IMG/VR virus record: IMGVR_UViG_3300043434_000871
Coordinates: 3,347-67,346 of that record
Reading direction: 5' to 3' (one strand)
Length of the DNA stretch: 64,000 nucleotides
Source: a virus
Under the pieces are notes generated by a model that saw only the letters and a list, made by a program, of their open reading frames with translations, did not search any database and had not been told where the DNA came from. This document shows, in pieces, positions 1,290-18,035 of this stretch. The stretch's first letter is position 1; each line of letters starts with the position of its first letter. The position numbers and the translations under genes are program-made.

Positions 1290-1421
1290 ACTTTTGGTTT
1301 CCTTTCTTGGGAGGACCACGCGGGGTTTGAACTTCGAGCCGTCATGCGAAATGACGACCCGAGTGCAAGGGGCCGCGGTGGTCGGTTTGTTCATGTTGGT
1401 TATTACGACAGTGTGGGGTTA

Positions 1422-1767
1422 TTATTCGTTCAAACTATTTGCCTCGTCGGCAAAGATTGTCTGCCACCGGATTGAGTCCCCGTGGTAGATGTGCCGCTCT
1501 TCGGCGTAGCGCAAGGCGTTGATGTGCTTGTCGTTGTTCGGCCAAGCGTTGCTCGCTCCCCGCTCGACGATCGCCGATCGCGTAATACCAACCTGGGCCT
1601 TCCGGCCACAGACTATCGGGATTGTCTTTCTCCTCGGGTGAGACCTCGAAGATCTCGTTGTTGCCAGTAGTGGCGATGTCGAGCAGTTCATCTTCAGTGC
1701 CGATGTAAAGATCGACGCCTCCAATGTGGTTGTTCTTTCCTAACAGGTGCAGTGTTTGTGTGTTCAT
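1422..1767 (-). pseudogene. Early gene frameshifted by a 7-bp tandem duplication
   Basis: CGATCGC x2 at 1568-1581; removing one copy joins the two ORFs into one 112-aa frame (WYYAIVERGASNAWP...). Confidence 0.6.
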
Positions 1768-1812
1768 AGTTCTTGGTTCCTTTCTACTTGGTTCATGGTT
1801 AAGAGGCCAGCA

Positions 1813-2475
1813 CTAGCCTATCGCATCCTCCTCCGCTTCTTCGGCCGTCTCGAACGGTCCGACCGCTTCGGAATCTGGGGCGCAACCGGGGGAGCAGGTC
1901 CACCAGTAATACCCGGCCAGCTTCTTCGCGGCCTCTTCGGTCGCCGGTTCCACTTCGGCCTGATCGTAGTCGCCGGTCAGGGCTTCTTTGACCGCCGCAT
2001 CGAGGAGGTCGGCTTGCCAAGATCCCGGTTCGCCTTCGAGGAATTCCTGAGAGTCCACGTAGAAAATCTCCACGTTCTTCAGCTTCGCCTCCCGGTGTTT
2101 GACCTTCCACTCCTCGAAGATGTCCTCGGCTTTGTCGCGATACCATTCGTTCACCTGTTGCTCGATCCAGTAATAGATCGCGGCCATGCCGTTGTTCTCG
2201 CGAGGGTTATTACCAACCCCGGCGTCTTCGTAGGCTTGCTCAAGCTCGCTGCCGTGGAGATACCAAGCATCGTTGATCTCCTTGGTATAGATCGGCACCG
2301 AACCGTCGATGATCTCGTGGATCGCCCCGGAATAGTTCAGATCGTTTTGTAGATCCGGAACAGAGTCGGGTTCGTTGTCGTCGAGATAACTCTCCAGTTC
2401 GTTCTTCACGTCCTCGATCGCGGACTCAAGCCGCTCTTCAAGGGTGTCGTCGATTTCGATGGTCTTCTTGCTCAT
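1813..2475 (-). CDS. Ocr-like acidic DNA mimic fused to a small C-terminal domain
   Basis: Very acidic; AIHEIIDGSVPIYTKEI...YEDAGV...AAIYYW resembles T7 Ocr AIHMAADNAVPHYYADI...FEDSGL...ARIYEQ; C-terminal GYYWWTCSPGCAPDSEAVGPF. Confidence 0.7.
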   Translation of the reverse strand: MSKKTIEIDDTLEERLESAIEDVKNELESYLDDNEPDSVPDLQNDLNYSGAIHEIIDGSVPIYTKEINDAWYLHGSELEQAYEDAGVGNNPRENNGMAAIYYWIEQQVNEWYRDKAEDIFEEWKVKHREAKLKNVEIFYVDSQEFLEGEPGSWQADLLDAAVKEALTGDYDQAEVEPATEEAAKKLAGYYWWTCSPGCAPDSEAVGPFETAEEAEEDAIG

Positions 2476-2508
2476 GGTAGTGTGTTTCCTTTCTTGGTTA
2501 CGGGGTTA

Positions 2509-2820
2509 TTACAATAGGTTGAGTTGATAGCCGTCTTGCGGCACGGTCTTCACGGTTGCGCGATGCACCACATGCCGAGCGGTGTGTAGCTCGGACGCTT
2601 CGTGATCGCGGAAGAGTTCGAGTAGTGAGGCCAACGCTTCATGCAGCCGTGGAGCCGCGGCCAGCAGATCGGCCTCTTGATGCACCCGCAACCCCGCATC
2701 GCGGAGCCGCAGGTAACGGCGGTCGTTCTCCCCGAGCCGCACGAGATACTCGTCAGCATACGCCGTGGCGGCAAAGCCGACCAACGAGACAAGCTGCGGG
2801 GTCAATGGTTCATGGTTCAT
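2509..2820 (-). CDS. Hypothetical early protein
   Basis: ADLLAAAPRLHEAL motif common in phage early proteins; stop overlaps the TAATAACCCC motif. Confidence 0.6.
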   Translation of the reverse strand: MNHEPLTPQLVSLVGFAATAYADEYLVRLGENDRRYLRLRDAGLRVHQEADLLAAAPRLHEALASLLELFRDHEASELHTARHVVHRATVKTVPQDGYQLNLL

Positions 2821-2832
2821 GGTTCATGGTTC
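2805..2832. repeat. Heptamer tandem repeat (ATGGTTC)x4
   Basis: Read directly; spans the start codon of 2509..2820. Confidence 0.9.
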
Positions 2833-2880
2833 AATCCGTTGGAGGTTGCTTTTGCCGTTTGCAACCTCCAAAGGTTGCTT

Positions 2881-3075
2881 TTAATACCAGCCTTCCGCGG
2901 CATAGAATGGGTGGTAGTTGTTGGACGTCTCGCGAAGCTCGATCACTTTCGCCTTCAACTTTTTAAGGATACGCATCACTTGTTCATCTTTGTTTTCCGG
3001 GTAATCAAATACCCGTTGGCGCATCCTCCTTAGTCGGATTTCGTAAGTCTGAAGTTTCGTGAGTTTCGTTTTCAT
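2881..3075 (-). CDS. Hypothetical basic protein
   Basis: 64-aa ORF filling the gene run. Confidence 0.55.
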   Translation of the reverse strand: MKTKLTKLQTYEIRLRRMRQRVFDYPENKDEQVMRILKKLKAKVIELRETSNNYHPFYAAEGWY

Positions 3076-3101
3076 AGGTTCAATAATAAGAGGCCAGTAG
3101 T

Positions 3102-3506
3102 TCAGGGTTCAGATGTTTCAGCCGCGAAATGGTTGCAGGCTTTCCGGAGTTCGGCCGCGAAGTCGATGTCGGAGCAACTCGCGTAATGCAGGAGGTTGCA
3201 GAGCAAATCGCAAAGCGCGTCTTCGTCGTCGGTGTTGGTCTCTTTGGCGAACCGATCGACAACCCGGATCGCGAGATTGGCGCGATAAGTGTTGTCGCCT
3301 CGGGGATCTTTGTAATAACCGCCGTGTTCCGGGATCACGACGACCGACTTGATGACTTCCGGCAGAAGCTCCTCGGCTTCGCGGACAAGCTCGATCGCAT
3401 CATCTATCGGGTCCGGGTGGTCTTCGTCGGGCTCGGCATCGAACAACGCAACCGCGCCTTCGATGGTGATCTTCAGTTCTTCGAGGATGGGTGTTTTGTT
3501 TTTCAT
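3102..3506 (-). CDS. Hypothetical early protein
   Basis: Acidic; DALCDLLCNLLHY motif typical of phage early proteins. Confidence 0.65.
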   Translation of the reverse strand: MKNKTPILEELKITIEGAVALFDAEPDEDHPDPIDDAIELVREAEELLPEVIKSVVVIPEHGGYYKDPRGDNTYRANLAIRVVDRFAKETNTDDEDALCDLLCNLLHYASCSDIDFAAELRKACNHFAAETSEP

Positions 3507-3520
3507 GGTGGTGTTCAGTG

Positions 3521-3877
3521 TTAAGAGGCCAGCAATGCGGGGTTATTACGCACGGGTTCACTGAAATCGGGTTGGTCAGAGTCAAAAACATCCCAAGCCG
3601 CAATCCAAAGAAGCCGGTGCCAGTTCTGCTCGTCATCGGCGAGTTCTTCGTCGTCCCATGCGCCATACTCGGCCAACTCACGCCGGATGGAGTCGGGAGT
3701 CGGGCCGTTGGGGAAGTTGTCACGCTCGGCTTGGTCGCGCACGGCGTCCACCCAAGCAGCGACGGCTTCGTCGTTGCGTCCCGACTGGGCGATGTCGAGG
3801 ATCGCTTCGCCGGGGATGCGGAATTCAAGGCCGTTGCCAGAGGCCCAGTAGAGTTTATTAGGTTCGATGTTTTTCAT
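3521..3877 (-). CDS. Hypothetical early protein
   Basis: AAAGGAAA RBS; IRRELAEYGAWDDEEL...RLLWIAAWD. Confidence 0.65.
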   Translation of the reverse strand: MKNIEPNKLYWASGNGLEFRIPGEAILDIAQSGRNDEAVAAWVDAVRDQAERDNFPNGPTPDSIRRELAEYGAWDDEELADDEQNWHRLLWIAAWDVFDSDQPDFSEPVRNNPALLAS

Positions 3878-3903
3878 GTGTCTGTTTCCTTTCCTGGTTG
3901 AGG

Positions 3904-4260
3904 TTATTCCAATTCTTTCATCGGCATGGGCGTGAACCACACGTCCACTTCGATGCCGATGCGGAGCGGGCCGGGGATGGAGGCCAACTCCCGCAGGCTG
4001 AAGTAGCCGTATTCTTTCTCGAAGCCTTGCACCAAGCCGAAGCACTCATCGGTGGAGGGATCCCATTCGCTGATGAACCATGTCCACGAGCCGCAGGGGT
4101 CGAAGAGTTTGACCTTGGCGGTCGGTGACTCGGTGCCGGTCGGCGGGACACCGCGCAACTCGCACGCTTTCCGCATGAGTTCGAGCTTCTTCGGGCCAAA
4201 GGTGATGCCGGCTTGGTCGATGTGTTTATCGAGGGTTTCGTTGTCGGGTATGGTATTCAT
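3904..4260 (-). CDS. DUF2958-family protein
   Basis: KLFDPCGSWTWFISEWD...FGLVQGFEKEYGYFSLREL...IEVDVWF. Confidence 0.8.
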   Translation of the reverse strand: MNTIPDNETLDKHIDQAGITFGPKKLELMRKACELRGVPPTGTESPTAKVKLFDPCGSWTWFISEWDPSTDECFGLVQGFEKEYGYFSLRELASIPGPLRIGIEVDVWFTPMPMKELE

Positions 4261-4289
4261 GTGTATTTCCTTTCTTGGTTACGGGGTTA

Positions 4290-4910
4290 TTACTCGGAGT
4301 CTTTGCTTGTCGGAATTCCGACAAGGGCTTCGGACTTCTTTGGTGTGTAGGGCGTGCCGCACGAGGGACACTCGTCGTCGTGCTGGCTGTCGCCTTCGGT
4401 TTGCCACTCAACCTCGCAGTCGAAGCAGTGGTAGACGTTGAGGTAGGAGACGGGGCTGTGTGCTTTTTGGGCTTTGGCGATGGCTTCGCAGGCGATTGTT
4501 TTCACGGCGTCGAGGGCATACCATGTCTTTTTCCCGGTCTCTCGTCGCTCAATGACCCCAGCCTCGCCGATAGCGGCTATCTGTTTAAGAGCAGCCAGCA
4601 ATTCGGGGGCGGCAGCTATAAGATGCGCGTTTGCTAACGCTTCGGGATGCCCTGACTCAATCCCAGAATCGTGAGTGCCAAGGTATTCTTTGATGGCTTC
4701 AAGATTCCAAGGGCCGGGTGTGTGGTGGCTTGTCGGAATTCCGACAATTTTGGCGATGGCTATCTTGAGTTCCTTGATGGTCAGCTTCACGCCTTCCACG
4801 TCCAACGTGACAAACGGATCGTTGGCTCTCTCGACTTCCAACGCACCCTGCAAATCAAGCAGGGCGCACTTGGCGGCGTTGAGAAGTTCTTGGTTGATTG
4901 TCTTTTTCAT
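4290..4910 (-). CDS. Hypothetical mosaic early protein with C-terminal zinc ribbon
   Basis: HTPGPW and ANAHLIAAAPELL motifs; CxxC...CxxC; VGIPT twice, each encoded by a 20-bp palindrome. Confidence 0.65.
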   Translation of the reverse strand: MKKTINQELLNAAKCALLDLQGALEVERANDPFVTLDVEGVKLTIKELKIAIAKIVGIPTSHHTPGPWNLEAIKEYLGTHDSGIESGHPEALANAHLIAAAPELLAALKQIAAIGEAGVIERRETGKKTWYALDAVKTIACEAIAKAQKAHSPVSYLNVYHCFDCEVEWQTEGDSQHDDECPSCGTPYTPKKSEALVGIPTSKDSE

Positions 4911-5200
4911 TGTTCGCTCTTCCTTTCGTTGTTGAGTTTCGGATGCTGTTGCACCCACTTGAGTTCCTTGTGCGCCCTGCTCATCTCAAGCAGGGTTCCT
5001 AACTTGCGCCACGCCTTGCGAGCATGGTCGTGGGCGATGCCATATTGGCAATCGTCCAAAGCGTGCGCTGCACGCTCCATCTCCGCATCAGCAGCATCAA
5101 AGTGCTCCACGATGCACGCTTCATGTTGCATGATGCGGTAGTCCAGCCACGGGATCATCTTGCCGCCCGTGTCGATCGGCTTGAGTAGGAATCGGCTCAT
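4907..5200 (-). CDS. Hypothetical early protein
   Basis: ATG next to palindrome 5205; stop overlaps the next start (ATGA). Confidence 0.6.
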   Translation of the reverse strand: MSRFLLKPIDTGGKMIPWLDYRIMQHEACIVEHFDAADAEMERAAHALDDCQYGIAHDHARKAWRKLGTLLEMSRAHKELKWVQQHPKLNNERKSEQ

Positions 5201-5220
5201 GGTGCTTGTCGAAATTCCGA

Positions 5221-6321
5221 CTACTCGATGCCGGGCATCGTGCGCTGGCTGGCCGGAACCCAGTCGCCCATGCCTTGCAAGCTCTCGGCTTCGGCATCCG
5301 CCGAACGCAGTGCTTTCCACTCGGCTTCGTCGAGGAGATCGTCGTCGAGGTTCTGCTGCGTCATGCCGACATCTTCGGAGCGTGCGGCCAAGCCGTCGTA
5401 ACTACCGCTCGGGACGGGGTAGGTGCGGTAACAGGAGGAGCCGCTCTTGCCGGAGGAATAGACCGAGAACTCGGAGCGGCGTGCTTCCCACGCTTCGTCG
5501 GCCAAGCTGCGGCCGAGGCTGCGCTGGCTGTGCTTGGCTTCGTGTCGGGTGACTTCGCCATGCTGCCATTTGGTGATCGAGTCGGGTTCGCCATGGCCCG
5601 CGGCAAACTCCATCCACGTCCACGGCTCGATGGCGAAGGCTTCGACACCTTTGCAGCCCCACGCATCGGCGATGGCTTCGATGATCGAGGGCTTGGTGCC
5701 GAAGATCCAACGGCCTTTCTTGGTGATGCCAGCGTAGAGCGAGGCCATGGCATCGACGGCAACGATGAGCCGCCCGCGGGGCGACAGGGCCAGAAAGGCC
5801 GCGTAGCCGGTGATGTGTTTCATCGCCGCTTGCTGCGCCTCGCGGTCGCCCGCATGGTCAACCAAGGCGTAGAGCAAGTGCTGCGAGTCGCACGTCGCCT
5901 TGCGGTGCTCCTTGGTTTGCTTGCCGTGCCAGGTGACGACGCCGTTGTGCGCCAACGTCCAGCCTTTGTGCCTGAACGGGTGCGTGTTGGCGAGGTTCAC
6001 GGCACATGTTGCAGTGCGACCATGGACGATGGTCGGCTTGTTGCGGTGGTAGTAACCGGTCTGCTCGCTGCGGTGCGCGGCGGTGAAGGCGGCGTAGCCA
6101 CGACCGGACAGGTCGTAGAGGGAGGGCAGGGTGTCGAGGGATCGGAAGTCCGATGGCTCGACAAATCTGCCGTGAAGCCCGCTCGGGCCGGACTGGGCGA
6201 AACCGAAGCCGCAGCGTTCGGTCTTGCTGATGGCTTCGCACGCCGCGATGAGGGCGCGGTCGGCGGAGTTGCGTGAGAGCGGGGAGTCTTTGCCCGCGGT
6301 CCATCCTGCTAATTTACACAT
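5221..6321 (-). CDS. Class II (Ntn) glutamine amidotransferase
   Basis: N-terminal MC; HGRTAT, NTHPF, LAHNG and CDS motifs. Confidence 0.85.
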   Translation of the reverse strand: MCKLAGWTAGKDSPLSRNSADRALIAACEAISKTERCGFGFAQSGPSGLHGRFVEPSDFRSLDTLPSLYDLSGRGYAAFTAAHRSEQTGYYHRNKPTIVHGRTATCAVNLANTHPFRHKGWTLAHNGVVTWHGKQTKEHRKATCDSQHLLYALVDHAGDREAQQAAMKHITGYAAFLALSPRGRLIVAVDAMASLYAGITKKGRWIFGTKPSIIEAIADAWGCKGVEAFAIEPWTWMEFAAGHGEPDSITKWQHGEVTRHEAKHSQRSLGRSLADEAWEARRSEFSVYSSGKSGSSCYRTYPVPSGSYDGLAARSEDVGMTQQNLDDDLLDEAEWKALRSADAEAESLQGMGDWVPASQRTMPGIE

Positions 6322-6377
6322 GATTTATTTTTCCTTTCGTTTGGTTGTTGGTTTTCTTGTCGGAATTGCGACAAGGG

Positions 6378-7718
6378 TTATTGGTCGGTGGCTTGGGTGG
6401 CGGGTTGGGCGAGGGGAGCGAGTCCGCCACGGCGGTAGCCGGGCAAACGGGTGTCGCTGGCCTCGAACTGCTGCACGAACTCGGCGCACTTGGCCGCGCC
6501 GAAGCGGTCGATGCTGCCGCGCTGGTTGCCGATGGTGCGGGCCTTGGCTTTCAGCGTGTTGAGCAAGGCACGCAACGTGCCGGGCTGGTGCAAGGCGGCC
6601 CACCGATAGAACGATTCCCACGCTTCGACGGCGGTCTCGTTATTGATGGGCGTGGCGCAGTCTCGCTCGGCGTTGTCTTCGCTCCAGAAGGCGATGGCTT
6701 GCATGAGCGAGGCGCGGAAACGCCAGTCGCTCGGCTTGCGGCTCGTGCCCCATAGACGCATCTCGACGGTGCCGGTGCGGCCGAAGGTGTTTGCGCTGAT
6801 GGCCGCAAACTTGACGCTCTGCGCGTCGACCCATGACCCGGTCGCCCCGATCGGGCACCAACGCGAGTGTCGGCGGGTGAGCGGTGCAAGGTAACGAGTC
6901 CACGACAGATGATACCGCAGGGCGTAATAGACGGCGCGGCCGATGGCCTCGTCGCGCTTGCAGTTGAGGTGGATGTGCCCGCCATTGCGCTCGATGGAGC
7001 CGAGGCGATGAACCAAGTTGCACGCAACCTCGGGGATGTTGGCGAAGATGCGGAACCTGATCTCATGCTGGCCGCCGCCGTCGCGGCCGACATCCCAGTA
7101 AGCGGCTTTGTATTGGCGGACAAGGATGGTCGAGACACACTGATCGTCGACGCGCTTGAAGGAACGCAGGCTCGTGGCCTCAAGCTCGCCGCTGCACTCA
7201 TAGAGCGGCAGCTTGTCCCAGTAAGACGGCTCGACTTTCTTCGGCGTGTGATCGCGGAGTATGTCGCGCTCCCATTTTTTGAAGTAAGGCCCAAGATTTT
7301 TGTCGAGTTGCCGTGCGTTGGCCCTGGACAGCCAATCCAACCCGAACTCATCGACGACTCGGGTGATGAGCGTGTCGAGGGTGATGCCGTCCTCGCGGAA
7401 GAGCTTGCGGAAGAACTTGCGCTTGCGGACATAGCGCAAGGCAATCTCAGCCATGAGCCGCCGCGACCGCTGGCGAACCTCGCTCTGCGCGAGTTCATAC
7501 TTGCCGCGAACCCGCTGATACGCCTTGCGGATGACCACTTTTTCGTCCCCTTCCAACAGCCCCCAGTTCGGGGCCATGTCGGGAGAAAAAGGATGCTCGC
7601 GATCCCCCTGGATATTCCATTGACGGCGGAGATACCAATAGGCATACCGCCCGTGATCCGAAAGTGGCATCGGCTTCGACGCGACCTCGGTGAGTGTGAG
7701 TGTGGAGTTATTATCCAT
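6378..7718 (-). CDS. Putative amidoligase (COOH-NH2 ligase type)
   Basis: GELEA, DGG..HEI, GGHIHLN and TVEMRL motifs; adjacent to the amidotransferase. Confidence 0.7.
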   Translation of the reverse strand: MDNNSTLTLTEVASKPMPLSDHGRYAYWYLRRQWNIQGDREHPFSPDMAPNWGLLEGDEKVVIRKAYQRVRGKYELAQSEVRQRSRRLMAEIALRYVRKRKFFRKLFREDGITLDTLITRVVDEFGLDWLSRANARQLDKNLGPYFKKWERDILRDHTPKKVEPSYWDKLPLYECSGELEATSLRSFKRVDDQCVSTILVRQYKAAYWDVGRDGGGQHEIRFRIFANIPEVACNLVHRLGSIERNGGHIHLNCKRDEAIGRAVYYALRYHLSWTRYLAPLTRRHSRWCPIGATGSWVDAQSVKFAAISANTFGRTGTVEMRLWGTSRKPSDWRFRASLMQAIAFWSEDNAERDCATPINNETAVEAWESFYRWAALHQPGTLRALLNTLKAKARTIGNQRGSIDRFGAAKCAEFVQQFEASDTRLPGYRRGGLAPLAQPATQATDQ

Positions 7719-7849
7719 GTTTGTTTCTTTCTTCTTTGGTTGTTTTGTTTTGCTTGACGCAATTCCGACAATTTTGCCGGAGGCGATTGGACAAGCCTTC
7801 CGCCCCCTCGCAGGGAAGGGGCGGTGTGGCTTGCACAGTTACAGGGTTA

Positions 7850-8209
7850 TTACTTGTCTTCGAACTGCGCGGCGTAGGTCTTGGGATTGATCCACCCATC
7901 CACCGGGACTTCGAGCGGATGATTCCACGCGAGGCGCAAATCCCCGTTGCGGGTGGACGTGTTCACCTTGGTCACTCCACGATCGCGGAACACGGCGAAC
8001 CCTCGCCGCTGGCCAACGCCGTTGATGCGCTCGCGGGTGATCACCGTGTCCCACCCGGCCAGCGTGATCTCGATCTCGCCATTGTCCGCATGGCGCACGA
8101 TCGGGTTGCCATGCAACCAAATCGTCGTGCCATCGGTGCGCGTGTTGCCGCACTTGCGGGGTCGCCGATTGCAAAACGCATCAGCTATCTCTCTCGTTAC
8201 TTTTCTCAT
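7850..8209 (-). CDS. Hypothetical early protein
   Basis: WLHGNPI...LAGWDTVITRERING, a recurrent phage early-protein pattern. Confidence 0.7.
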   Translation of the reverse strand: MRKVTREIADAFCNRRPRKCGNTRTDGTTIWLHGNPIVRHADNGEIEITLAGWDTVITRERINGVGQRRGFAVFRDRGVTKVNTSTRNGDLRLAWNHPLEVPVDGWINPKTYAAQFEDK

Positions 8210-8267
8210 GCTGTCTCTCTTTCTAATTGTCGGAATTCCGACAAGGTTACAGGGTTAATACTTTCAA

Positions 8268-8390
8268 TCACAAAGCCAGCAGCAACGCGCCGGCCAAGAG
8301 CAACCCCAAGACGAAGAAAATCTCGCCAAGGGTGTTGATAAGTTGCGCGACCGCCCGGCCGCGCTCAGTTTGAACTCGATGTTTTCTCAT
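8268..8390 (-). CDS. Small membrane protein (40 aa)
   Basis: MRKHRVQ...IFFVLGLLLAGALLLAL; follows the TAATAACCC motif. Confidence 0.5.
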   Translation of the reverse strand: MRKHRVQTERGRAVAQLINTLGEIFFVLGLLLAGALLLAL

Positions 8391-8404
8391 GGGTTACAGG
8401 GTTA

Positions 8405-8620
8405 TTACCCAAGTTTCGCCACCGAGGGAAGCAAATCCGCAAATGGTGTGAACATGTGCGGACGCTGCGCCGCCCGGTAATCCTGGCCGCCGATCAAATC
8501 GACAGCCGCCGCGCAACGCTCTTCCATTGACGGCCGCCGCGGATGCTTCTCCGCGTAACGCTCAAGCCGATAGTCTGTTTTTCTGGCACTCACCAGCATC
8601 ATGTGGATGGTCTTTTTCAT
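8405..8620 (-). CDS. Hypothetical early protein
   Basis: ATG downstream of palindrome 8639. Confidence 0.5.
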   Translation of the reverse strand: MKKTIHMMLVSARKTDYRLERYAEKHPRRPSMEERCAAAVDLIGGQDYRAAQRPHMFTPFADLLPSVAKLG

Positions 8621-8727
8621 TTTGTCTTTGTTTGGTTCCTTCACGGAATTCCGTGAAGCCTTGCCATAATGGGCAAGCCACACGCGCACAACCGCTGTCG
8701 GTTGTGGCGTGTCGTTTGCTCACTTGG

Positions 8728-8871
8728 TTAGAACTCCGTTTCAAGAACGGCGCGGATTTCTTCCGGTGAACGCCGCTCGCGCAAGGCTTGGCACACGTTC
8801 TCGTTCTCCAATGCCAGCGCGGGTTCTATTAACAACTCACCGCAAAGGGCGAGGAATTGCATCTTACTCAT
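8728..8871 (-). CDS. Hypothetical small protein
   Basis: MSKMQFLALCGELLIEPALALENENV. Confidence 0.55.
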   Translation of the reverse strand: MSKMQFLALCGELLIEPALALENENVCQALRERRSPEEIRAVLETEF

Positions 8872-9013
8872 GGTTCTTGCTTCATGGTTCATGCTGCACG
8901 TTGCGTGCGACACGCTTGTCGGTTCAATGGACAAGGCACAACACACGCGCAAGCGGATGGAACGCTTGCGGTGTGCTGGTGCTTTGCTCACTTAACGCAA
9001 TTGCGTGAAGCGA

Positions 9014-9445
9014 TTACTTGCTGGCTTTTTGTGCGAGCAAGTAGACGCGGCGAGCAACGGCGACAAGATCCTTGCCGCTGTAGCGTTTGCGTAGCGCGGC
9101 GAATTCCGCTTGTGCCTTGGCTTGCACTTTCGCGGACTCCGCGGCCTTGGCCTTGCTCGCCTTGCGGCGTCGCAAACCGAACGCGAGCATTTCACGGGAG
9201 ATGGCCTGTTGTTTCCATCCGTTAGCTTCCAGCGCGGCTTCGATTGCTTCAACTTTGATAGCCCCGGCATTGTCTTTGATGAAGCCGCGCAACTCTTCAC
9301 GCATGGCTTTTGCTCCTTGCTCTGCCGCGTTAATGGCGAGGAGTGTTGACGCAATTGCGTCTTCTATTCCTCCGGCGATTGCTTTGGGTGTTTCGCTCAC
9401 TCCGTAAGAGAATGAGATTGTCACGTTGCTCTGTTTCTTTTTCAT
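9014..9445 (-). CDS. First gene of the early run; Ala/Lys-rich basic protein
   Basis: 143-aa helical basic ORF. Confidence 0.6.
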   Translation of the reverse strand: MKKKQSNVTISFSYGVSETPKAIAGGIEDAIASTLLAINAAEQGAKAMREELRGFIKDNAGAIKVEAIEAALEANGWKQQAISREMLAFGLRRRKASKAKAAESAKVQAKAQAEFAALRKRYSGKDLVAVARRVYLLAQKASK

Positions 9446-9578
9446 GTTGTCTTTTTTCTTTTTTGTTAGGTTCACCGGAAGCTGTGATGCGCTCGCATCA
9501 ACTTTTCCGGCTCATTAGTAAGTGACCAGCGCTGCAATTTACTCTGTTAAATGGTGCGGGATTGTGCGATTATTAAGG

Positions 9579-10157
9579 ATGCCCAGACCGCCCCTTCCTA
9601 TTGATTGGCAAGCTGTCCGCGCTCTTTACTTAGGAGGCGCAAACCCGAACGCTATTGCAAAGCGTTTTGCAATAAGCATAAACACTTTAAGATCAAGAGC
9701 TTGCAGAGAAAAATGGAACGTCATAAGAGACGGAGGAAAAGAATCGAAAGCGCGACAGATAGAGAAAACAGCAGAGATAGCGCGTGACATTTGGGCTGAA
9801 CGTAGGGAAGCCATCCGGGAAAATATCCACACAATCGGCAGCAAAATGACAAGCTATGCCGCGCAACTTCCTGAGGATCAATTACTTGCAAAGGCTGACA
9901 AAATAAAGATTGCCGCAGAGATTGCGGGAAAAATCGTAGGACTCGATAGAATGGAGGATCGAAATGTTATCAACATTGCACTGTTAGGTGCAATCGACTC
10001 CCCGACAGAGACTTATGACGATTTTCGGGTGCATGATGAATTGCCACAATGCGGCACAATTTCACTCAATAACAGAGTAGGGCACAGAGATTGCGAAGCC
10101 GTGGACACCACCACCCACCCCACCACGGTAGATCCCACTGACCCGATTTCGCCCTGA
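9579..10157 (+). CDS. Terminase small subunit-like HTH protein
   Basis: IDWQAVRALYLGG...IAKRFAISINTLRSRACREKW is a TerS-type N-terminal HTH. Confidence 0.6.
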   Translation: MPRPPLPIDWQAVRALYLGGANPNAIAKRFAISINTLRSRACREKWNVIRDGGKESKARQIEKTAEIARDIWAERREAIRENIHTIGSKMTSYAAQLPEDQLLAKADKIKIAAEIAGKIVGLDRMEDRNVINIALLGAIDSPTETYDDFRVHDELPQCGTISLNNRVGHRDCEAVDTTTHPTTVDPTDPISP

Positions 10158-10220: not shown

Positions 10221-10249
10221 TTGACAGGCTCGCAGATTCACTAAATAAT
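10221..10249 (+). promoter_or_regulatory. Sigma70-like promoter upstream of the tRNA
   Basis: TTGACA-N17-AATAAT. Confidence 0.65.
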
Positions 10250-10254
10250 AACCG

Positions 10255-10323
10255 CGCAGGAAAGGTTGGATCCTCGGCTAGTCTCATAAGCTGGCCTTCC
10301 GAGTTCGATTCTCGGTCCTGCTA
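10255..10323 (+). tRNA. tRNA with CAT anticodon (Met or Ile2), short D-arm, no encoded CCA
   Basis: Acceptor GCAGGA/TCCTGC; anticodon loop CTCATAA; T-arm CCGAG-TTCGATT-CTCGG. Confidence 0.75.
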
Positions 10324-10961: not shown

Positions 10962-11026
10962 TCCAAGGCCGACGGCTAAATAGGGCGAATCTGCCCGAAT
11001 TACGCCCCGAAGGGGCGGGGTTGGAC

Positions 11027-11549
11027 CCAGTTCCCTACCAGTTCCCATAGGCAGTTCCCACCCCTTAAAGCCCGATGGATAAAGGGTTTACAGCCGAAAG
11101 GGAACTGGGGGTCAGACACATATCTTTTTTATAATAAAGAAAGTATATATGGGTGGTAAACCCGCCCCCGCCCGGCGGCACGTCCCCCGCGTCCCCCACG
11201 GGGTGCTCCCCCCGACCCCTGACCCCCCCAGTTCCCCCTCATCGGTTAAGTCCCTCTAAATCAACACTTTAAGGGTGGGAACTTGGGGGTGGGGTTTCCT
11301 TTTTGGTGGGGTTGGTCATTCTGACCCCCCTCCGTGAACCATGAACCGTGTATCGTTTTCCTCTGTAAGTCTGCTACACGCTTCATGCGACAAGGTGCAA
11401 ACGGTCGTGCGGAGTAGAAAGTGCTCCGTAGTTCAAGCCACGTTTGAGTTAATACCTAATTCGGTATGCGCCGGACGGTTTGCACTTAAATAAGACCTAC
11501 TCTGTTCGGGCCGTCTTTTAGCCTTCTCGGACGGTTTGCGCTTAAATAA
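11027..11549. other. Non-coding, repeat-rich origin-like region
   Basis: CAGTTCCC repeats, 17/18-bp inverted repeat around an AT-rich core, 22-bp direct repeat pair. Confidence 0.45.
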
Positions 11550-11625: not shown

Positions 11626-12087
11626 CTAGAACCACCGAACCACGGTTCCTGCTTCATGGAACATGGTGCGTGCTGCATGGAACGACTCGGCCCAACGTGT
11701 CGAAGCCGTAGACATGTTTTCGGGACGTGTATACGAATCCTCGATTTTTGGACATATCACCTCGGTAATACCTGCCTGGATGATGGCGGCGGCGCATTGG
11801 GCGCACGGCTGGAAGGGGTAGACCACGATCGAGTAACCGTGGAGCGGCTCACGGGCAGCGAGGATCGCGTTAAGCTCTGCGTGGACCGTGTAGAGGAGTT
11901 TCTGGTCTCGGTCGGCCAGACGGGCCGGATCGTCGGAAACGCCCCTGGGGAGGCCGTTGAAGCCCACGCTGGCCACCGAGCGGTCCGGTCGGATAATAAC
12001 CGCGCCGACTTGGGAGGAGGGGTCACGTGACCAGGAGGCGACGTGTGCGGCAAGGTTAATAAACCGCAACGACCATTTAGGGTTCAT
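11626..12087 (-). CDS. dCMP deaminase
   Basis: GFNG, HAELNAI and PCAQC zinc motifs. Confidence 0.9.
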   Translation of the reverse strand: MNPKWSLRFINLAAHVASWSRDPSSQVGAVIIRPDRSVASVGFNGLPRGVSDDPARLADRDQKLLYTVHAELNAILAAREPLHGYSIVVYPFQPCAQCAAAIIQAGITEVICPKIEDSYTRPENMSTASTRWAESFHAARTMFHEAGTVVRWF

Positions 12088-12149: not shown

Positions 12150-14549
12150 TCAGAAAGGGTCGTCTGACACCTCGGCCTCCGGCTCGATCTCCGGCTTGGT
12201 GATCCGCCACTTGTGCACCTTGTCCTTGCCGAAGCGTCTCTTGAGAAGCGCGACATTGGCATCCCCGCGGGTGGCCAGTTGCGCGAGGCGTTGGGCCAAG
12301 AGCCGCACCGGCCATTCGCGAGTCAGGGAGGCATTGTCGAAGACATCATTGAACGACTGGTGCAGATCGACCGTCGTGCCTTCCCACGGCTCATCGAATC
12401 CGCGGCGTTCCCACCAAGCGTTGAGGGTGTCGCGCAGTTCGGCGTGGCGACCCGAGGCGTCGATCTTGTCGCGGACTTCCGAGGCGATGACTCCGCGGAC
12501 GAAGAAGCGGTTGGTCCGGTCGAGGTATTTCTCGGGGATGTCCCAGTTCTTGATCCAAGCAAGGAGGTAGGGGAGTTCGGTCTCCACGTCCTTGAGGTCT
12601 TCGATCGTCGGGCCTTCCTCGTAAGTCTTGAGGGCCAAGGCGATGATCTTGTCCTCGTTTGAGATGTCGAGAGCTGGGACGGCTTTGATGGAGACCGCGT
12701 CGTCGTTGGCCGCGATGACCACCCGGCCCCGCCATTCGACCATGATCGGGGTGAGATACTTCTCGTGATATTTGTGCTTCCCGTGGGCGACCAGCTTCTT
12801 CACGTAGGAGGCGTAGCGTTGCAGCGCGGACTCGGATTCCGCGGCACGGGAATCGTCGATGATGGCCAGCGGGCTTTGGAATAGGTCGGCATTGAAGCCA
12901 TTACCTTCGCCCGAGACGACCGAGGAGAGATCCGCGTAGCCGCCCATGGCTGGGTAGAGAAGTTTTTCGATCAGGAAAGTTTTATAGCAGTGCACCGGGC
13001 CGACCAAGATCATCGCCTGACCCATGCACAGTTTACCGGCTTCGGCGGATTCGTAGAACCGTTTGAGCCAAGCGAGGAAGACTTCCTTGTAGTCCGGATC
13101 GACGAAAACATTGTCGAGGATCATCGCGTAGCGTGGGAAACCCTCGCCCCAAGCCCCGGCAACGTCTGCCGCTTTAGTGATGCGGACATTCTTGCTCGTG
13201 TTGAGGAATTTCTTGCCGCCGTCGAACCACAGTTCGTGCGGGTTGTAGAGACTCGGGCCTGCCCCGTCCACGCGGCGGTGTTCACGGATGAAAGCTTTGG
13301 CCTTATCCATCGGCGACATGGCAGCACCCTTGGGGGCGCGGTCGCTGAACCCGCGGCATTTGAGTTCGCTGGAGAGCATCGCGACCATCTCGTATCTCCA
13401 GATGCCGTCATCCCCCTTCATAAAAAACGTCTTCCCGTCGTAGTAGATGTCATCAAACCGTCCACTCTTATCGGCTTTGGTGGATGACTTGGGCGTCTCC
13501 GGCGATTCGTTATTCCCGTTTTCGGTGGTTGCGGCATCCTTTGTGCTGCTATCTGGCGAATCCTGACAGTTCTCGGCAAGGGGGGTGACGTTTTGTCCCC
13601 CTCCTTCCAAAACCCTCGAAATCGAGGGGTTTAGAATTCCCGCCTCCGGGTTGAAGTAGATGAGTCGTTGTGCCTTGCCCGTGTCCTTGCGGATGCAGCC
13701 GGGGATGCGGGTGAGCCGCACCGCAGACATCGCGGCGGGGTCCGCGCCGAGCGGGACGAGGAGGTCGGCGATTTCCGAGGCTTTCTCCAGATACTCGGCG
13801 CGGTCTTTGGCTGAGACGCGGACGAGCGCGTGGGCCGACTTCGAGCCTGAGGTGGTCACCGAGACGATCGGGAGGTAGTTGGTAAGATTCGGGTTGAGAT
13901 GTTTAGACAGCACCCGCAGCCAGAGTTCCAGATCGACCGAGTCTGATTCGATGAGCGTGTATTCATAGGCGACCAAGTTTTCCTCGGCGCGTCGGGTTTT
14001 CTTGTTCAACCGCTCGACGAATTTCATCGGTCCCTCGATCGGGTTTACCATGATCCATGCTCCCTCCGTATTATCCGCCAGCGTGCGGTCCACGCGGAGG
14101 TCTTCCATCTTTTGCGACCAGACCAGTTGACCTTGTGATTCCTGCTTGGTGAATATGGCGTTGGCATACTTACCATAAAGGCGACGGAGAAACTCCGAGG
14201 GCGTGATGTCGGTCGGAGGAATCGGAGAGGTCGCGGTGAAATCCTCGATTGAGAGCGGACCTTCCGCAGTCAGGGAGAGCAGAGACTTTTCATCTTTCTC
14301 CCGCTTGAGCGAGACCTTCGGGCGCGGCTCGATAAGTCCTTCCGCCTCGGCGCGGACATTGGCCAGCGTTTCGGCGATCTCCCGCGGCTGCGGGGCACGT
14401 TGCAGGTAGCGCGTGATCCACTGTTCGATGAAGGGGTCATCATAGGTGTTAGCTACCAGCGCGTGCACCGCGCCAAACATCCAAGCGTGGCATCCTTGGC
14501 CGGAGGCGGGGCAGGGGTTCAGTCCGAGTTCTTCAGGTGTGGGATTCAT
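12150..14549 (-). CDS. Primase-helicase (AEP-like primase plus SF3-like NTPase)
   Basis: IESD, SGSKSAHA and RLTRIPG motifs; C-terminal GPVHCYKT, IIDD and IAAN. Confidence 0.75.
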   Translation of the reverse strand: MNPTPEELGLNPCPASGQGCHAWMFGAVHALVANTYDDPFIEQWITRYLQRAPQPREIAETLANVRAEAEGLIEPRPKVSLKREKDEKSLLSLTAEGPLSIEDFTATSPIPPTDITPSEFLRRLYGKYANAIFTKQESQGQLVWSQKMEDLRVDRTLADNTEGAWIMVNPIEGPMKFVERLNKKTRRAEENLVAYEYTLIESDSVDLELWLRVLSKHLNPNLTNYLPIVSVTTSGSKSAHALVRVSAKDRAEYLEKASEIADLLVPLGADPAAMSAVRLTRIPGCIRKDTGKAQRLIYFNPEAGILNPSISRVLEGGGQNVTPLAENCQDSPDSSTKDAATTENGNNESPETPKSSTKADKSGRFDDIYYDGKTFFMKGDDGIWRYEMVAMLSSELKCRGFSDRAPKGAAMSPMDKAKAFIREHRRVDGAGPSLYNPHELWFDGGKKFLNTSKNVRITKAADVAGAWGEGFPRYAMILDNVFVDPDYKEVFLAWLKRFYESAEAGKLCMGQAMILVGPVHCYKTFLIEKLLYPAMGGYADLSSVVSGEGNGFNADLFQSPLAIIDDSRAAESESALQRYASYVKKLVAHGKHKYHEKYLTPIMVEWRGRVVIAANDDAVSIKAVPALDISNEDKIIALALKTYEEGPTIEDLKDVETELPYLLAWIKNWDIPEKYLDRTNRFFVRGVIASEVRDKIDASGRHAELRDTLNAWWERRGFDEPWEGTTVDLHQSFNDVFDNASLTREWPVRLLAQRLAQLATRGDANVALLKRRFGKDKVHKWRITKPEIEPEAEVSDDPF

Positions 14550-14570: not shown

Positions 14571-15950
14571 CTATTTACGATAAAATTTTGACACAATGGA
14601 TTCTGCTCCGAGGGGGAGGTCTTGGCACCAGTCCGGGGCGGTCGACATGATCTGTTCGACCTCTTGGCGCTTGGCTTCGGCGTCGGCTTCATTGACCAGT
14701 AGCACGACTTCGTCATGCACGCGCATGAGGATTTCATAACCAGCATCTTCCAGTGCCGTGCAGCGGTCCATAAACACATCACGCGCAAACGCTTGCGTGC
14801 AATTCTCGGCCAATAAGCCGCCGTAAAGTTTCACGTCCATCATCTTGCCGTTACGTGGCATCGAGGCCACGATCTCGCCGCGACCGAGGCGGCGCACGTT
14901 GCGGTAAACGAGTTCACGCCCAGAGGGCAGGGGAACGATCAACTCACGATCATTCGGGTCCGTCGAGACTTTCAGCGCCCGGTCGAGCTTGGCCCAGAGA
15001 GCGATGATTTTTGGGGAAGATGCGCGGTAGGACTGCACAATTTCTTCCGCTTCTTGCAAAGTTATGTCGAGTCCCGCCAGCATCTTGGCGACGAGGCAGA
15101 ACTTCGAGGGGCCGCAGCCGTAGCCGAGACCAAGAACACGGGCCTTGGCGAGGAAGCGCATCTTCGGGTCCACATCCTTGAGCGGACGCGGATCGGTGTA
15201 ACCCATCGTCGCCCTGGCGTGGGCTTCGTAGATGTCGATGCCGCTGGCGATTAGTTTGAGCAGATCAAAATCTTTGGCGAGGTAGGGGAGGCAGCGTGCT
15301 TCGATTTGAGCCAAGTCGCAAATGATGAGTGTCTTACCATCCGGTGCCTCGATGAGATTGCGGATGTCCACGCCGGCCACTTCGCCCTTCGGGATGTTCT
15401 GAGCGTTCCAGCCGCCACCTCCGGAGTCTCGTCCCGTCGTAGCGCCAAAAAACTTTAACTCGTAAGGCATCCGACCATCCGGTCGCGTGCGAGCGATCAT
15501 TGTTTGCACCGTCTTGAGGTGTTTGTTGGCTTTGCGATAGTCGCGCACCGCACGCACCCACGGGAACTTGTCGGCGAACTCGGCTTCCCATGCCGCTCCT
15601 TCGGGATCCTTCTCCGCGAAAGACTTCGGCTTGCGGATACCTTCCTTGTCACATTGATCCCGAATCGCCTGCAAGGAAAGCGGAGGGTATTCACCACCGA
15701 TCCACGGAAGGAGAGCCTCGGTCCGGCGCTTCTCCTCGATGAGCTTGGCTTCCGCAGCGCGGAGCTTCTCCAGATTCACCGGCACCCCGCGCATCCCCAT
15801 CTCGCGAGTCATCGCCGAGAGTCTCCATTCACGCTGCGGCATCCGGTGTCCGTGCTCCTGCCAGAGCAGAAACGTCGCCTTGGTGTCATAGAGCGCGTAG
15901 CGGGCGACTTCCTTTTTGAAGTCGTTGGTCATGTAAGGGGATTTAGGCAT
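14571..15950 (-). CDS. polA: Family A DNA polymerase, C-terminal part (ExoIII plus polymerase)
   Basis: YALYD; TTGR; motif A DLAQIEAR; motif B KARVLGLGYG; motif C VHDE. Confidence 0.9.
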   Translation of the reverse strand: MPKSPYMTNDFKKEVARYALYDTKATFLLWQEHGHRMPQREWRLSAMTREMGMRGVPVNLEKLRAAEAKLIEEKRRTEALLPWIGGEYPPLSLQAIRDQCDKEGIRKPKSFAEKDPEGAAWEAEFADKFPWVRAVRDYRKANKHLKTVQTMIARTRPDGRMPYELKFFGATTGRDSGGGGWNAQNIPKGEVAGVDIRNLIEAPDGKTLIICDLAQIEARCLPYLAKDFDLLKLIASGIDIYEAHARATMGYTDPRPLKDVDPKMRFLAKARVLGLGYGCGPSKFCLVAKMLAGLDITLQEAEEIVQSYRASSPKIIALWAKLDRALKVSTDPNDRELIVPLPSGRELVYRNVRRLGRGEIVASMPRNGKMMDVKLYGGLLAENCTQAFARDVFMDRCTALEDAGYEILMRVHDEVVLLVNEADAEAKRQEVEQIMSTAPDWCQDLPLGAESIVSKFYRK

Positions 15951-15959
15951 ATTTCTTTC

Positions 15960-16241
15960 CTAGTCTATATCCAATTTTAGCATCGCCAGCGCAGCCATCT
16001 CTACGGCGCACCGCCACTTGTTTTCCCACCCCTTAATCTGCTCCCGTGCCGCGTTTAGCTCTTTGCGTAACTCGTTAGCACACATGCGAGCATGGCACAA
16101 ATCCCCGACATATGAGACCTTCAGTCTGTCCTTGTCTGCGTAAACATAGGTTCCGCAATGGTAATACCAACGCCGCGATGGTTGCCACTCATTTGACTTA
16201 CCTCCGATGTTGCAATTAGGACATTTCTCAGGTGCGTTCAT
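15960..16241 (-). CDS. Hypothetical Cys-containing protein (within polA insertion)
   Basis: CPNC...HCG...C; ATGA-coupled to the upstream gene. Confidence 0.6.
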   Translation of the reverse strand: MNAPEKCPNCNIGGKSNEWQPSRRWYYHCGTYVYADKDRLKVSYVGDLCHARMCANELRKELNAAREQIKGWENKWRCAVEMAALAMLKLDID

Positions 16242-16525
16242 TTCGCGGCCTCCTCTCTGGCAATGTCGCTAATCTCCATGAGCAAACCGCGATGATCGGA
16301 CACTTTGAGATAACCCTCCGTGGCTAAAGTGCAGATACTCCGCAACGCCTCCCGCGCCTCGTCGCGCTCGCGGATAAGCCTGTCAATCGAGTTTAGTTCT
16401 GTGAGACTTCGCGCCTCGTCGCGCTCGCGTTCGAGACGCTCACACGTCTCCCGCAGCACAAACGACCACTGCCCGTTGCTGGCGATGACCGCCGCCGCCG
16501 TCTCTGGCGTGGGTCTGTCGCTCAT
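16238..16525 (-). CDS. ERERDEAR coiled-coil phage protein (within polA insertion)
   Basis: MSDRPTPET start; RERDEAR twice. Confidence 0.65.
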   Translation of the reverse strand: MSDRPTPETAAAVIASNGQWSFVLRETCERLERERDEARSLTELNSIDRLIRERDEAREALRSICTLATEGYLKVSDHRGLLMEISDIAREEAAK

Positions 16526-16857
16526 TTCGCGGCCTCCTCACCTAAAATTTTTGCGATGTCCTTTATTGCAGCATAAAAATCGCTGATTGCTTCCAAAGCT
16601 CCCGGCTTGCCATCAACCTCGTCGTAATCCTCAGCATACGCCTCTGCAAAACGGCGCAGTTCGTGGCCCGCTGAATACAAGTTTCGGGCAAGCTCCCGCG
16701 CCTCGTCGCGCTCGCGGATCAACGCCTCGCAGCCATCGCACACCGCATCGATCACCTCGCTAGTTTGTTTTGGGCACGGCATCTGCTGGTTCCAATCCTC
16801 GCCACGCCGCCATTTGTTAAACTCCCGCAAGCTAGCGATAGCTGCTAGTTCGTTCAT
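16522..16857 (-). CDS. ERERDEAR-type phage protein (within polA insertion)
   Basis: FNKWRRG and RERDEAR motifs; ATGA overlaps. Confidence 0.65.
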   Translation of the reverse strand: MNELAAIASLREFNKWRRGEDWNQQMPCPKQTSEVIDAVCDGCEALIRERDEARELARNLYSAGHELRRFAEAYAEDYDEVDGKPGALEAISDFYAAIKDIAKILGEEAAK

Positions 16858-17072
16858 TTTACCCCCTTCCATTTGGTTTTTTTTTTCTGCGGCCGGATGT
16901 AGGCGGTGATCTGTGCTTTGGCGCGTTGGGCGTCTTCGATCGCCCAGTTGATGCGTTCGATGCACTCGCTGAGTTCTCCGGAGATCCAGAGGTCTTGGGC
17001 GAAGCCCAGACTGGTTTTACCTGTGGTGATGTTCAGATAGGCGTGTTCGATAGGTGGGATTTTTCGTTTCAT
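16854..17072 (-). CDS. Hypothetical protein (within polA insertion)
   Basis: ATGA overlaps at both ends. Confidence 0.55.
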   Translation of the reverse strand: MKRKIPPIEHAYLNITTGKTSLGFAQDLWISGELSECIERINWAIEDAQRAKAQITAYIRPQKKKTKWKGVK

Positions 17073-18032: not shown

Positions 18033-18035
18033 GAC

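Follow-up and report, generated by a model that had tools for sequence, protein, structure and literature searches.

A lineage-specific palindromic element at the gene junctions of a small-gene array in a freshwater and wastewater phage

The gene array and its palindromes

The DNA analysed here, referred to as the window, is a stretch of 64,000 nucleotides comprising bases 3347-67346 of the 67,346-bp virus record IMGVR_UViG_3300043434_000871 (the rest of the record amounts to 3,346 bp), and the subject of this report is a set of nine 20-bp palindromes located at or near the junctions of an array of co-directional small genes on its minus strand. The palindromes are a real, non-random and evolutionarily maintained junction element. 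Regarding the genome setting, genes run on the minus strand from about 25.3 kb back to the window start and on the plus strand from 25.5 kb on, and DNA of this phage is present in freshwater and wastewater metagenome runs. The array starts beside a TerS-like gene and a region resembling a replication origin or packaging site (ori/pac-like region). Read on the gene strand it contains the head block, a head palindrome (9485-9500), gene A (with site 9 inside it), site 8, module 1, gene B (8892-8728), module 2, site 7, gene C, gene D, site 6, gene E, site 5, gene F (446 aa), site 4, gene G (GATase-like), site 3, gene H, gene I (with sites 2 and 1 inside it) and gene J (DUF2958). The features concerned are listed below, the palindromes being numbered as sites 1 to 9 by position; scores in bits refer to the position weight matrix (PWM) described further on.

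4290-4910, minus strand: gene I, 206 aa, a 54-residue N-terminal piece fused to a phrog_1273-like part across site 2
4306-4325: site 1, perfect, 34.0 bits, read in frame within the final 11 codons of gene 4290-4910 and 45 nt before the ATG of 3904-4260
4729-4748: site 2, one mismatch, in frame (IVGIPTS) in gene 4290-4910, at the start of its phrog_1273-like part
5205-5224: site 3, three mismatches, 26.5 bits, over the TAG stop of 5221-6321 and 4 nt before the ATG of 4907-5200
6356-6375: site 4, 2 nt past the stop of 6378-7718 and 34 nt before the ATG of 5221-6321
7753-7772: site 5, three mismatches, a hybrid that combines half-sites of two types, 34 nt before the ATG of 6378-7718
8226-8245: site 6, 16 nt before the ATG of 7850-8209
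8639-8658: site 7, perfect, with CA/TG replacing GT/AC in both arms, 18 nt before the ATG of 8405-8620
8659-8727, minus strand: junction module 2, made up of GTGAGCAAAC and a pair of hairpins, immediately upstream of site 7
8893-8990, minus strand: junction module 1, made up of GTGAGCAAAG, a pair of hairpins and ATGAACC units of heptad-like form, between site 8 and the variable gene slot B
8991-9010: site 8, 3 nt past the stop of gene 9014-9445
9014-9445, minus strand: gene A, encoding 143 aa, which opens the array and is the candidate reader of the sites, with an all-helical model and a basic Lys/Ala-rich stretch
9345-9364: site 9, the weakest (20.5 bits), inside gene 9014-9445 on conserved DAIAS codons
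9485-9500, minus strand: a tenth palindrome, of 16 bp and related but with another centre, at the array head, 39 nt ahead of the gene A start codon (ATG)
9519-9531, minus strand: head-of-array block CGCTGGTCACTTA, a variant form of junction motif TGCTGGCCTCTTA, found in this phage, L021, L024 and L034-L037
9579-10157, plus strand: TerS-like helix-turn-helix gene (phrog_1206, E = 2.6e-4), divergent from the array and kept in all relatives

All nine palindromes of a preliminary description of this DNA were recovered where it had placed them, starting at 4306, 4729, 5205, 6356, 7753, 8226, 8639, 8991 and 9345, with 0, 1, 3, 1, 3, 1, 0, 1 and 2 mismatches per 10 base pairs in sites 1 to 9, arms of 7-8 bp and the centre AATT in 9/9 sites. 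The half-sites form a small vocabulary that is combined differently between copies, with mixed pairs in sites 5 and 8, and this comparison of the copies bears out the small, mixing set of half-sites that had been described. Five sites are intergenic (4-8), one lies over a stop codon (site 3) and three lie inside open reading frames (ORFs; sites 1, 2 and 9), in agreement with the earlier count of three copies in coding sequence, two of which (1 and 2) do both read VGIPT(S) in frame in the one gene 4290-4910. Six of the nine palindromes end 4-45 nt ahead of a start codon, the distance from palindrome to ATG being 4-98 nt overall, and sites 8, 4 and 3 start 0-3 nt from the upstream stop codon. 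The leaders that follow the palindromes are A/C-rich with almost no T and have a GGA-type ribosome site.

A symmetrised PWM built from the nine sites was scanned over the whole 67,346-bp genome, a comparison that is partly circular since the matrix was derived from the same sites; the nine scored 20.5-34.0 bits and the best other genomic site 8.1 bits (window 59310), and the maxima in 30 dinucleotide-preserving shuffles were 0-18.7 bits. The claim that no copies occur outside about 5 kb therefore stands, matches being confined to 4306-9364 and not spread over the genome at background frequency. An independent search with a 10-mer core at no more than one mismatch gave 13 matches, compared to 5.0 +/- 2.3 expected, a number reached in 0/100 shuffles, and 7 of the 13 are the reported palindrome sites. 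An exact-core pattern scan of IMG/VR returned 17 contigs, each with a single site, which is roughly as many as estimated for chance, and none of them was blastn-similar to the genome; the motif strings had no relevant match in the searched literature.

Short palindromes are strongly avoided genome-wide, with 17 of the 64 palindromic hexamers having 0 copies vs 6-37 expected each and about 20 more below 0.35 of expectation, while GAATTC, CGATCG, CCGCGG and TGGCCA are in excess. This avoidance suggests, from sequence composition, heavy restriction pressure, and it makes the confinement of the 20-bp palindromes to the array more striking. The idea of restriction-site decoys was rejected, GAATTC being not avoided (22 copies vs 11.5 expected).

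Tests for known signals

Neither sigma-70 promoters nor intrinsic terminators are represented by the palindromes. On the gene strand, A/C-rich sequence with no T run comes after each palindrome, and none of the minus-strand terminator-like matches (15 in total, compared to 12.3 +/- 3.4 expected) lies at a palindrome; canonical hairpin-plus-T-run terminators exist elsewhere in the phage, for instance at 23717-23695. The one sigma-70 match in 1300-9700 is on the non-coding strand, with 2.3 +/- 1.4 expected. Integron attC sites are imperfect inverted repeats of several tens of bp, variable in sequence, which stand beside an integron integrase and a common promoter; the present elements are 20 bp long and near-identical in sequence, the only integrase-like gene (24074-25330) is 15 kb away, and this identity was rejected. 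Regarding a parS or centromere function, for which the array adjoins an ori-like region, no ParA or ParB family was found among the approximately 50 proteins scanned.

Elements in related phages

Related loci, designated by L numbers, were obtained from IMG/VR, seven by their primase (70-76% identity) and seven more by gene F (34-54%). The PWM of this phage gave no site of 12 bits or more on these 14 loci, and a listing of perfect palindromes found little in them; repeat finding revealed in each relative a repeated element of its own at the corresponding place, downstream of the primase, of the ori-like region and of the divergent TerS-like gene. Five of the element types are palindromic, with 7-8-bp arms and a short A/T-rich centre, and one is non-palindromic (TGCTGGCCTCTTAA).

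L018: CTTGTTCG-CATC-CGAACAAG, 10 copies (at most one mismatch), all in 5.8 kb of a complete 71,476-bp record
L021, L024 and L036: GAGTCGC-AAAC-GCGACTC, with 7, 7 and 3 copies
L027 and L031: ATCCGTT-N-AACGGAT, then a second small hairpin, 13 copies in 9 kb of a complete 71,940-bp record
L037: CTTGTCCG-AAAT-CGGACAA
L034 and L035: same type as in this phage, with the centre AATT in 5/5 sites
L019 and L023: the oriented motif TGCTGGCCTCTTAA(T) in place of a palindrome

L021 has kept the gene order A-E-F-G-H at 46-63% protein identity, and its element follows A and precedes each of E, F, G and H, which are the junctions of sites 8, 6, 5, 4 and 3. At the A, E, F, G and H junctions the element is near-identical within each genome and different between genomes, and the sites evolve in concert within each phage lineage. 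Uniformity within genomes together with change between them points to a genome-encoded reader that changes its specificity, or to homogenisation, and argues against a host factor; stoperators and their repressors have this pattern as well (PMC6550527). The relatives' own element is also present at the position of the head palindrome (L021 8762, L024 14838, L018 10959, L027 5286), and in L018 two sites 106 bp apart lie on either side of the conserved head block, so that one of them would be outside the array transcript if the head block is a promoter.

A second junction motif and the head of the array

The non-palindromic junction motif, TGCTGGCCTCTTAA(T)nnnGAAC, referred to below as the TGCTGG motif, is oriented, lies 1-50 nt ahead of start codons and often encodes the last codons of the upstream gene (LLAS, then stop). 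Three matches of this type are present at distal junctions of this phage, compared to 0.02 expected.

3522-3532, minus strand: motif of the TGCTGGCCTCTTAA type with the core CTGGCCTCTTA, over the last codons (LLAS, stop) of 3521-3877 and upstream of 3102-3506
3087-3097, minus strand: further copy of the TGCTGGCCTCTTAA type
1800-1810, minus strand: further copy of the TGCTGGCCTCTTAA type

All copies of TGCTGGCCTCTTAA(T) in L019 (13/13, at 14685-21327) and L023 (16/16, at 15012-21699) are on the gene strand and confined to 6.6 and 8.4 kb, respectively. A compact promoter is one possible role of the motif, a termination-reinitiation signal another. Palindrome and TGCTGG motif are positional alternatives, since this phage has both kinds at its junctions and since the phrog_1273-like gene follows site 2 here and the TGCTGG motif in L019 and L023, in which stand-alone homologues of the phrog_1273-like part start as ...HTPGPW just past their own junction motif. 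A variant of the TGCTGG motif heads every palindrome-type array.

A further block, TAACAGAGTAAA(Y)TG.AGCG, is found at 9505-9545 of the window and at about 14650-14680 of L019, and its orientation relative to the TerS-like gene in L019 and L023 is opposite to that in this phage, L021 and L024. The TerS-like ORF is open from a GTG at 9522, and because of this reversed orientation its N-terminal extension may be regulatory sequence and not coding.

Junction modules and turnover of the genes between them

Modules 1 and 2 both open with GTGAGCAAA and have two hairpins each, and in the second hairpin the outer arms (CTTGYC...GRCAAG) are reminiscent of those of the palindrome. Module 1 is 75-77% identical to its counterparts in L034 and L035, which are 93% identical to each other. 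In module 2, 62/65 and 63/66 bases are identical to L034 and L035, compared to 66-68% in the adjoining gene A, with the differences in the loop of the second hairpin, and the module is 95-98% identical between phages whose gene A DNA is 66-73% identical. Tandem 7-nt units (GAACCCT / GAACCAT / CATGAAC) at junctions give TGA or ATG in all three frames; they are found at window 8872-8892 and in L019 (15226-15300), L034 (about 2110-2140) and L024 (15296-15335).

The slot between sites 8 and 7 contains three unrelated genes in this phage, L034 and L035 and is empty in L021, L024 and L036, and the next slot differs as well, with gene C here and another gene in L034. Slot replacement is gene-precise, from heptad-borne start codons to a stop in or beside GTGAGCAAAC. 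In one wastewater contig position 3107 is joined to 8881, with 5,773 bases (3108-8880) including sites 1-7 missing and the ends in GAACC-type heptads; this joint is seen in a single contig of depth 4.7, with a side of 60 nt, at a likeness cut-off of 85%. Parts of 3108-8880 are present in further contigs from that run, and the phage population appears mixed for this segment.

Since the slot has been refilled between conserved modules, the joint lies in heptads and gene I is fused across site 2, the junction modules appear to be recombination-active, and the 20-bp palindrome stays a candidate crossover point. Recombination points had been put forward earlier as an alternative explanation of the palindromes; the suggestion suits the junction modules of about 70-150 nt that hold them better than the palindromes themselves, the sole joint being at heptad repeats.

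Covariation and folding

Covariation between the arms was assessed on 42 sites (31 distinct), in an alignment without the L027-type sites, whose centre is of odd length, and without two weak L018 matches (12395, 16598). Of its cells 84.7% were paired, compared to 61.7 +/- 2.2 in shuffles and 28-38% in slid controls, and 8/8 pairs had changed on both sides. This covariation between phages fits a hairpin, and equally a dimer site tracking its protein. Regarding folding as RNA, seven of the nine sites form hairpins of 5-8 bp at -7.8 to -12.7 kcal/mol (z -3.5 to -7.1), while sites 3 and 5 fold no better than shuffles (-4.9 and -3.8 kcal/mol; z -1.4 and -0.3) and keep recognisable half-sites despite having no meaningful hairpin. 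Mismatches of the G:U type are not enriched on the mRNA strand, on which 3 were counted vs 8 on the other strand (31 distinct sites). The centres in L021 and L024 are asymmetric and in one orientation (AAAC in 12/14, AAAT in 2/14, all on the gene strand). No Rfam family match was found in the window.

Candidate readers of the sites

The preliminary description had taken the palindromes for binding sites of a dimeric protein and named the ribbon-helix-helix (RHH) proteins at 23.3-24.0 kb as candidates. The symmetric binding site is in keeping with the uniformity within and change between genomes, which fit a phage-encoded reader; the named proteins are not, as they do not co-vary with element type. 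The ribbon and helix of RHH proteins 23313-23522 and 23725-24018 are near invariant in this phage, L019, L023 and L024 despite different or no palindromes, and RHH protein 23455-23634 varies out of step with element type. The TerS-like protein, which that description had listed for binding checks, is unsuited as specificity determinant, being 92% identical (153/167 residues) between L024, with palindromes, and L019, without. Gene C (8405-8620), homologues of which follow the equivalent site in L021, L024, L036, L027 and weakly L018, had been suspected of encoding an RHH protein from its N-terminal pattern; it was rejected, Pfam finding no RHH in 12 members and the AF2 model being poor (pLDDT 57.7) and helical.

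The best remaining candidate is the product of gene A, which the preliminary description had likewise put forward for checking as the 9014 protein. An A-family gene heads all palindrome-type arrays examined (this phage, L021, L024 and L034-L037, and weakly L018 and L027/L031) and is absent from both non-palindrome arrays, L019 and L023. The gene diverges fast, and a site stands just ahead of it in every case. Its model (pLDDT 76.4) includes a helix-turn-helix-like pair, and a homodimer is predicted with an ipSAE of 0.67, compared to 0.00 for the best of three controls, a mark that is reached by 20/30 proteins solved as pairs and by 1/23 solved as single chains; the dimer runs share at least 46% of contacts, with a partner pLDDT of at least 67. 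The model supports dimerisation only, and not site binding. A search for further A-bearing arrays gave only the two already known in IMG/VR and four short contigs in JGI metagenomes.

Interpretation

The reading tentatively preferred here, at somewhat less than an even chance, is that the palindromes are sites for a phage-encoded symmetric DNA-binding factor that gates expression of the array, with A as the best candidate. A phage-encoded, sequence-specific, two-fold symmetric factor would bind the palindromes on double-stranded DNA and, when bound, would gate how far transcription runs along the array; sites inside the operon would be operators or roadblocks, the site just ahead of the first gene would allow for autoregulation, and the reader would be the product of that gene, A (9014-9445). 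The conserved junction modules would in addition be homology patches for cassette swaps between phages. We infer protein binding, DNA rather than RNA as the form bound, A as the protein and an effect on repression or read-through. The proposal draws on the specificity and confinement of the sites, on the recurrence of this arrangement in relatives, each with an element of its own limited to its array, on the half-sites that occur in mixed pairs, on sites 3 and 5, which keep half-sites without folding, on the AATT centre, which is itself palindromic, on the G:U counts, on the two L018 sites around the head block, and on the place of gene A at the head of palindrome-type arrays with its predicted homodimer.

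Several observations weigh against this proposal. No promoter was found in the array for the palindromes to act on. Arms match better within a site than across sites (12/72 mismatches vs 20.0 when shuffled, P = 0.0097), a result driven by sites 7-9, with L018, L021 and L024 varying too little for the same comparison; site 7 has four symmetric changes relative to its L034 orthologue, in a setting where the 65 preceding bases are 95% identical; and the neighbouring hairpins keep their stems and vary in their loops. These three features are predicted by a base-paired structure and not required by a symmetric dimer. Regarding gene A, no DNA-binding family or fold was detected (none in Pfam and PHROGs; PDB fold E = 3.7; BFVD E = 1.7; Atlas 0.78), and L021 and L024 share an element type yet their A proteins differ in the helix-turn-helix-like stretch. 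The association of A with palindromes is moreover confounded by ancestry, the palindrome-type arrays also having F and G in common, and because of this shared ancestry the association amounts to about one evolutionary event.

Duplex-DNA binding is rated slightly above an RNA hairpin in the polycistronic transcript, a doubtful but substantial alternative in which the element would be a processing or stability signal or a nut/boxB-like site, possibly read by the basic stretch of A, and would tune or uncouple the expression of adjacent cassettes. The folding of most sites, the co-varying arms, the arm match within sites, the symmetric change of site 7 in its conserved context and the conserved stems and variable loops of the flanking hairpins are all as such a structure would have them, as are the asymmetric centres of the relatives, in one orientation to the genes, and the position of many elements 0-4 nt from, or over, the upstream stop codon. 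However, the copies of one genome resemble each other far more closely than structure alone needs, sites 3 and 5 do not fold, and neither a G:U excess on the mRNA strand nor an Rfam match in the window was found; the covariation between phages is equally expected of a dimer site co-evolving with its protein, the fixed orientation of the loop can be inherited by duplication, and one L018 site is upstream of the head block. It is improbable that the palindromes are recombination linkers without a regulatory role, kept alike by recombination and used as crossover points for cassettes, an explanation that would account for the two variable slots, for a flanking module far better conserved than gene A, for the hybrid site 5, which is what a central crossover would give, for the fusion of gene I across site 2 and for the contig joint, and which has precedents in recombination at the PeSLs of T4-type phages (PMC2839356) and in deletions between the repeats of Cluster O phages (PMC4351075). 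Against it, the sole joint is at GAACC heptad repeats and not at a palindrome, 20 bp is short for homologous recombination, no recombinase gene is adjacent, and all junction elements have changed in concert between this phage and L021, which is unexplained without selection.

It is very improbable that an RNA polymerase of non-host or modified type, which the phage would deliver or encode, uses the palindromes as promoters, with TGCTGGCCTCTTAA as a second promoter class. Hairpin promoters are used by the virion RNA polymerase of phage N4. Palindromes and TGCTGG motif are equivalently placed upstream of homologous genes, the TGCTGG motif keeps to one strand in L019 and L023 and in variant form heads every palindrome-type array, and the phage has a virion-type polyvalent protein of 3,409 aa that is mostly without assigned content; however, neither an RNA polymerase nor a sigma domain turned up in the approximately 50 proteins scanned or in this giant protein, the distance from palindrome to ATG is far from constant, sites are also present inside ORFs, and the phage has a near-consensus sigma-70 promoter elsewhere.

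A wider proposal, which we regard as a long shot, is that these freshwater phages have a cassette platform in which a phage-specific junction code, either a palindrome read by dimeric A or TGCTGGCCTCTTAA, would set both expression and crossover points, as an analogue of integrons with co-evolving reader and sites and with arrays swapping between 92%-identical backbones. Repeated short palindromes are known in phages, such as those of Cluster O, and have so far been studied within single clusters; in the present phages a given junction can be followed through six or more types of element in related genomes, which reveals concerted change within a lineage, two interchangeable junction motifs and ultra-conserved linkers around refilled slots. 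The sites, gene A and the head block are the parts of a tractable system for how phages keep fast-turnover accessory genes both expressed and exchangeable. If the pairing of reader and site is true, orthogonal protein/operator pairs would follow, their practical value being prospective.

Comparison with known phage elements

The temperate Streptomyces phage phiC31 has 17-bp inverted repeats, in many highly conserved copies in the gaps of its early region, which are bound by the phage repressor. The closest precedent for the junction element is the palindrome of Cluster O mycobacteriophages, described (PMC4351075) as a 17-bp sequence 5'-TGTTCGGNNNCCGAACA with 7-bp arms and an A/T-rich centre, for which the authors proposed a dimeric regulator and between copies of which they saw indels, with 34 genome-wide copies in Corndog. 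Many near-identical copies occur in one phage group and none in other phages, placed in short gaps, at gene starts and in some ORFs and enriched in one long run of small genes, and the half-site resembles the present ones, especially that of L018 (TGTTCG...CGAACA); the present element has, in the same manner, 7-8-bp inverted arms around an AATT centre and both intergenic and intragenic copies. In contrast, more than 30 copies are spread over the Cluster O genomes, with a centre of no consistent orientation, whereas here 9-13 copies are confined to one array of 5-9 kb, the sequence changes between close relatives at a kept position, a second, non-palindromic motif takes the part of the palindrome in sister phages, and phages and hosts are unrelated to those of Cluster O.

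The stoperators of Cluster A mycobacteriophages are similarly many short sites in gaps, mostly off promoters, with a phage-specific consensus that tracks the repressor (PMC6550527, PMC9283540), and the block of elongation proposed for them (PMC6550527) is the mechanism favoured here. They are described as 13-bp asymmetric sites oriented with transcription and bound by a monomeric repressor, with 20-30 copies genome-wide (PMC6550527), unlike the 9-10 two-fold symmetric sites in one array of this phage. A stoperator-type asymmetric, genome-wide site was rejected on these grounds, the sites being symmetric and confined to 4306-9364 (to 9500 with the head site).

The PeSLs of T4-type phages are intergenic modules of stop codon, stem-loop, Shine-Dalgarno sequence and start in a hyperplastic region of small genes, with gene-precise replacement between conserved modules (PMC2839356). 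A hypervariable region with small genes replaced between relatives is found here too, in the slot between sites 8 and 7. A strong sigma-70 promoter and a variable stem-loop are reported for the PeSLs (PMC2839356), whereas here there is no such promoter and the stem-loop sequence is conserved and phage-specific. The SAS/ESAS of Cluster K mycobacteriophages comprise a short oriented motif just ahead of many start codons and, for about half the copies, an upstream imperfect inverted repeat, the consensus of which differs between subclusters (PMC3203893); the SAS differs in containing the ribosome-binding site and being genome-wide, and the ESAS in having 17-bp arms and a variable spacer (PMC3203893). 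The likeness is closer for the TGCTGGCCTCTTAA motif than for the palindromes.

Other features of the genome

Regarding the remainder of the genome, the following genes frame the array and its surroundings.

11626-12087: dCMP deaminase gene
12150-14549: primase gene
14571-15950: family A DNA polymerase gene
19997-22420: helicase/exonuclease gene
24074-25330, minus strand: integrase-like gene
25499-27319, plus strand: large terminase gene
53345-63574, plus strand: polyvalent virion protein, 3,409 aa, with LPD37 and ADP-ribosyltransferase (ART-PolyVal) domains (Pfam)

The 3,409-aa protein is a virion structural protein in PHROGs, has no sequence match in PDB and is without family match over most of its length. 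A blastn search of 3900-9500 against GenBank phages gave no match, and tblastn with the large terminase (TerL) and the primase gave distant matches alone, at 23-34% identity, the top primase match being an Akkermansia phage; as a result, no cultured relative and no host can be named. A primase search of genome contigs for a prophage found none.

The ori/pac-like region (window 11000-11320) contains GGGAACT-type iterons in inverted sets around an AT-rich stretch, and the relatives have GGGAACTTGGGAACT inverted repeats at this position. A tRNA-Met gene is located at 10255-10323 on the plus strand, with the near-consensus sigma-70 promoter TTGACA-17-AATAAT ahead of it at 10221-10249; in two runs most of the depth at this gene has an extra T behind 10293, which probably represents reads of a cellular tRNA gene. 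A gene-end motif, TAATAACCCYRYAACC, consisting of a double stop and an A/C-rich linker, is always on the coding strand and present in both genome arms, with 14 matches (at most three mismatches) compared to 0.12 expected, including those at 670, 2496, 4277, 7837, 8245, 8392, 14555, 23300, 30979, 36697 and 44689.

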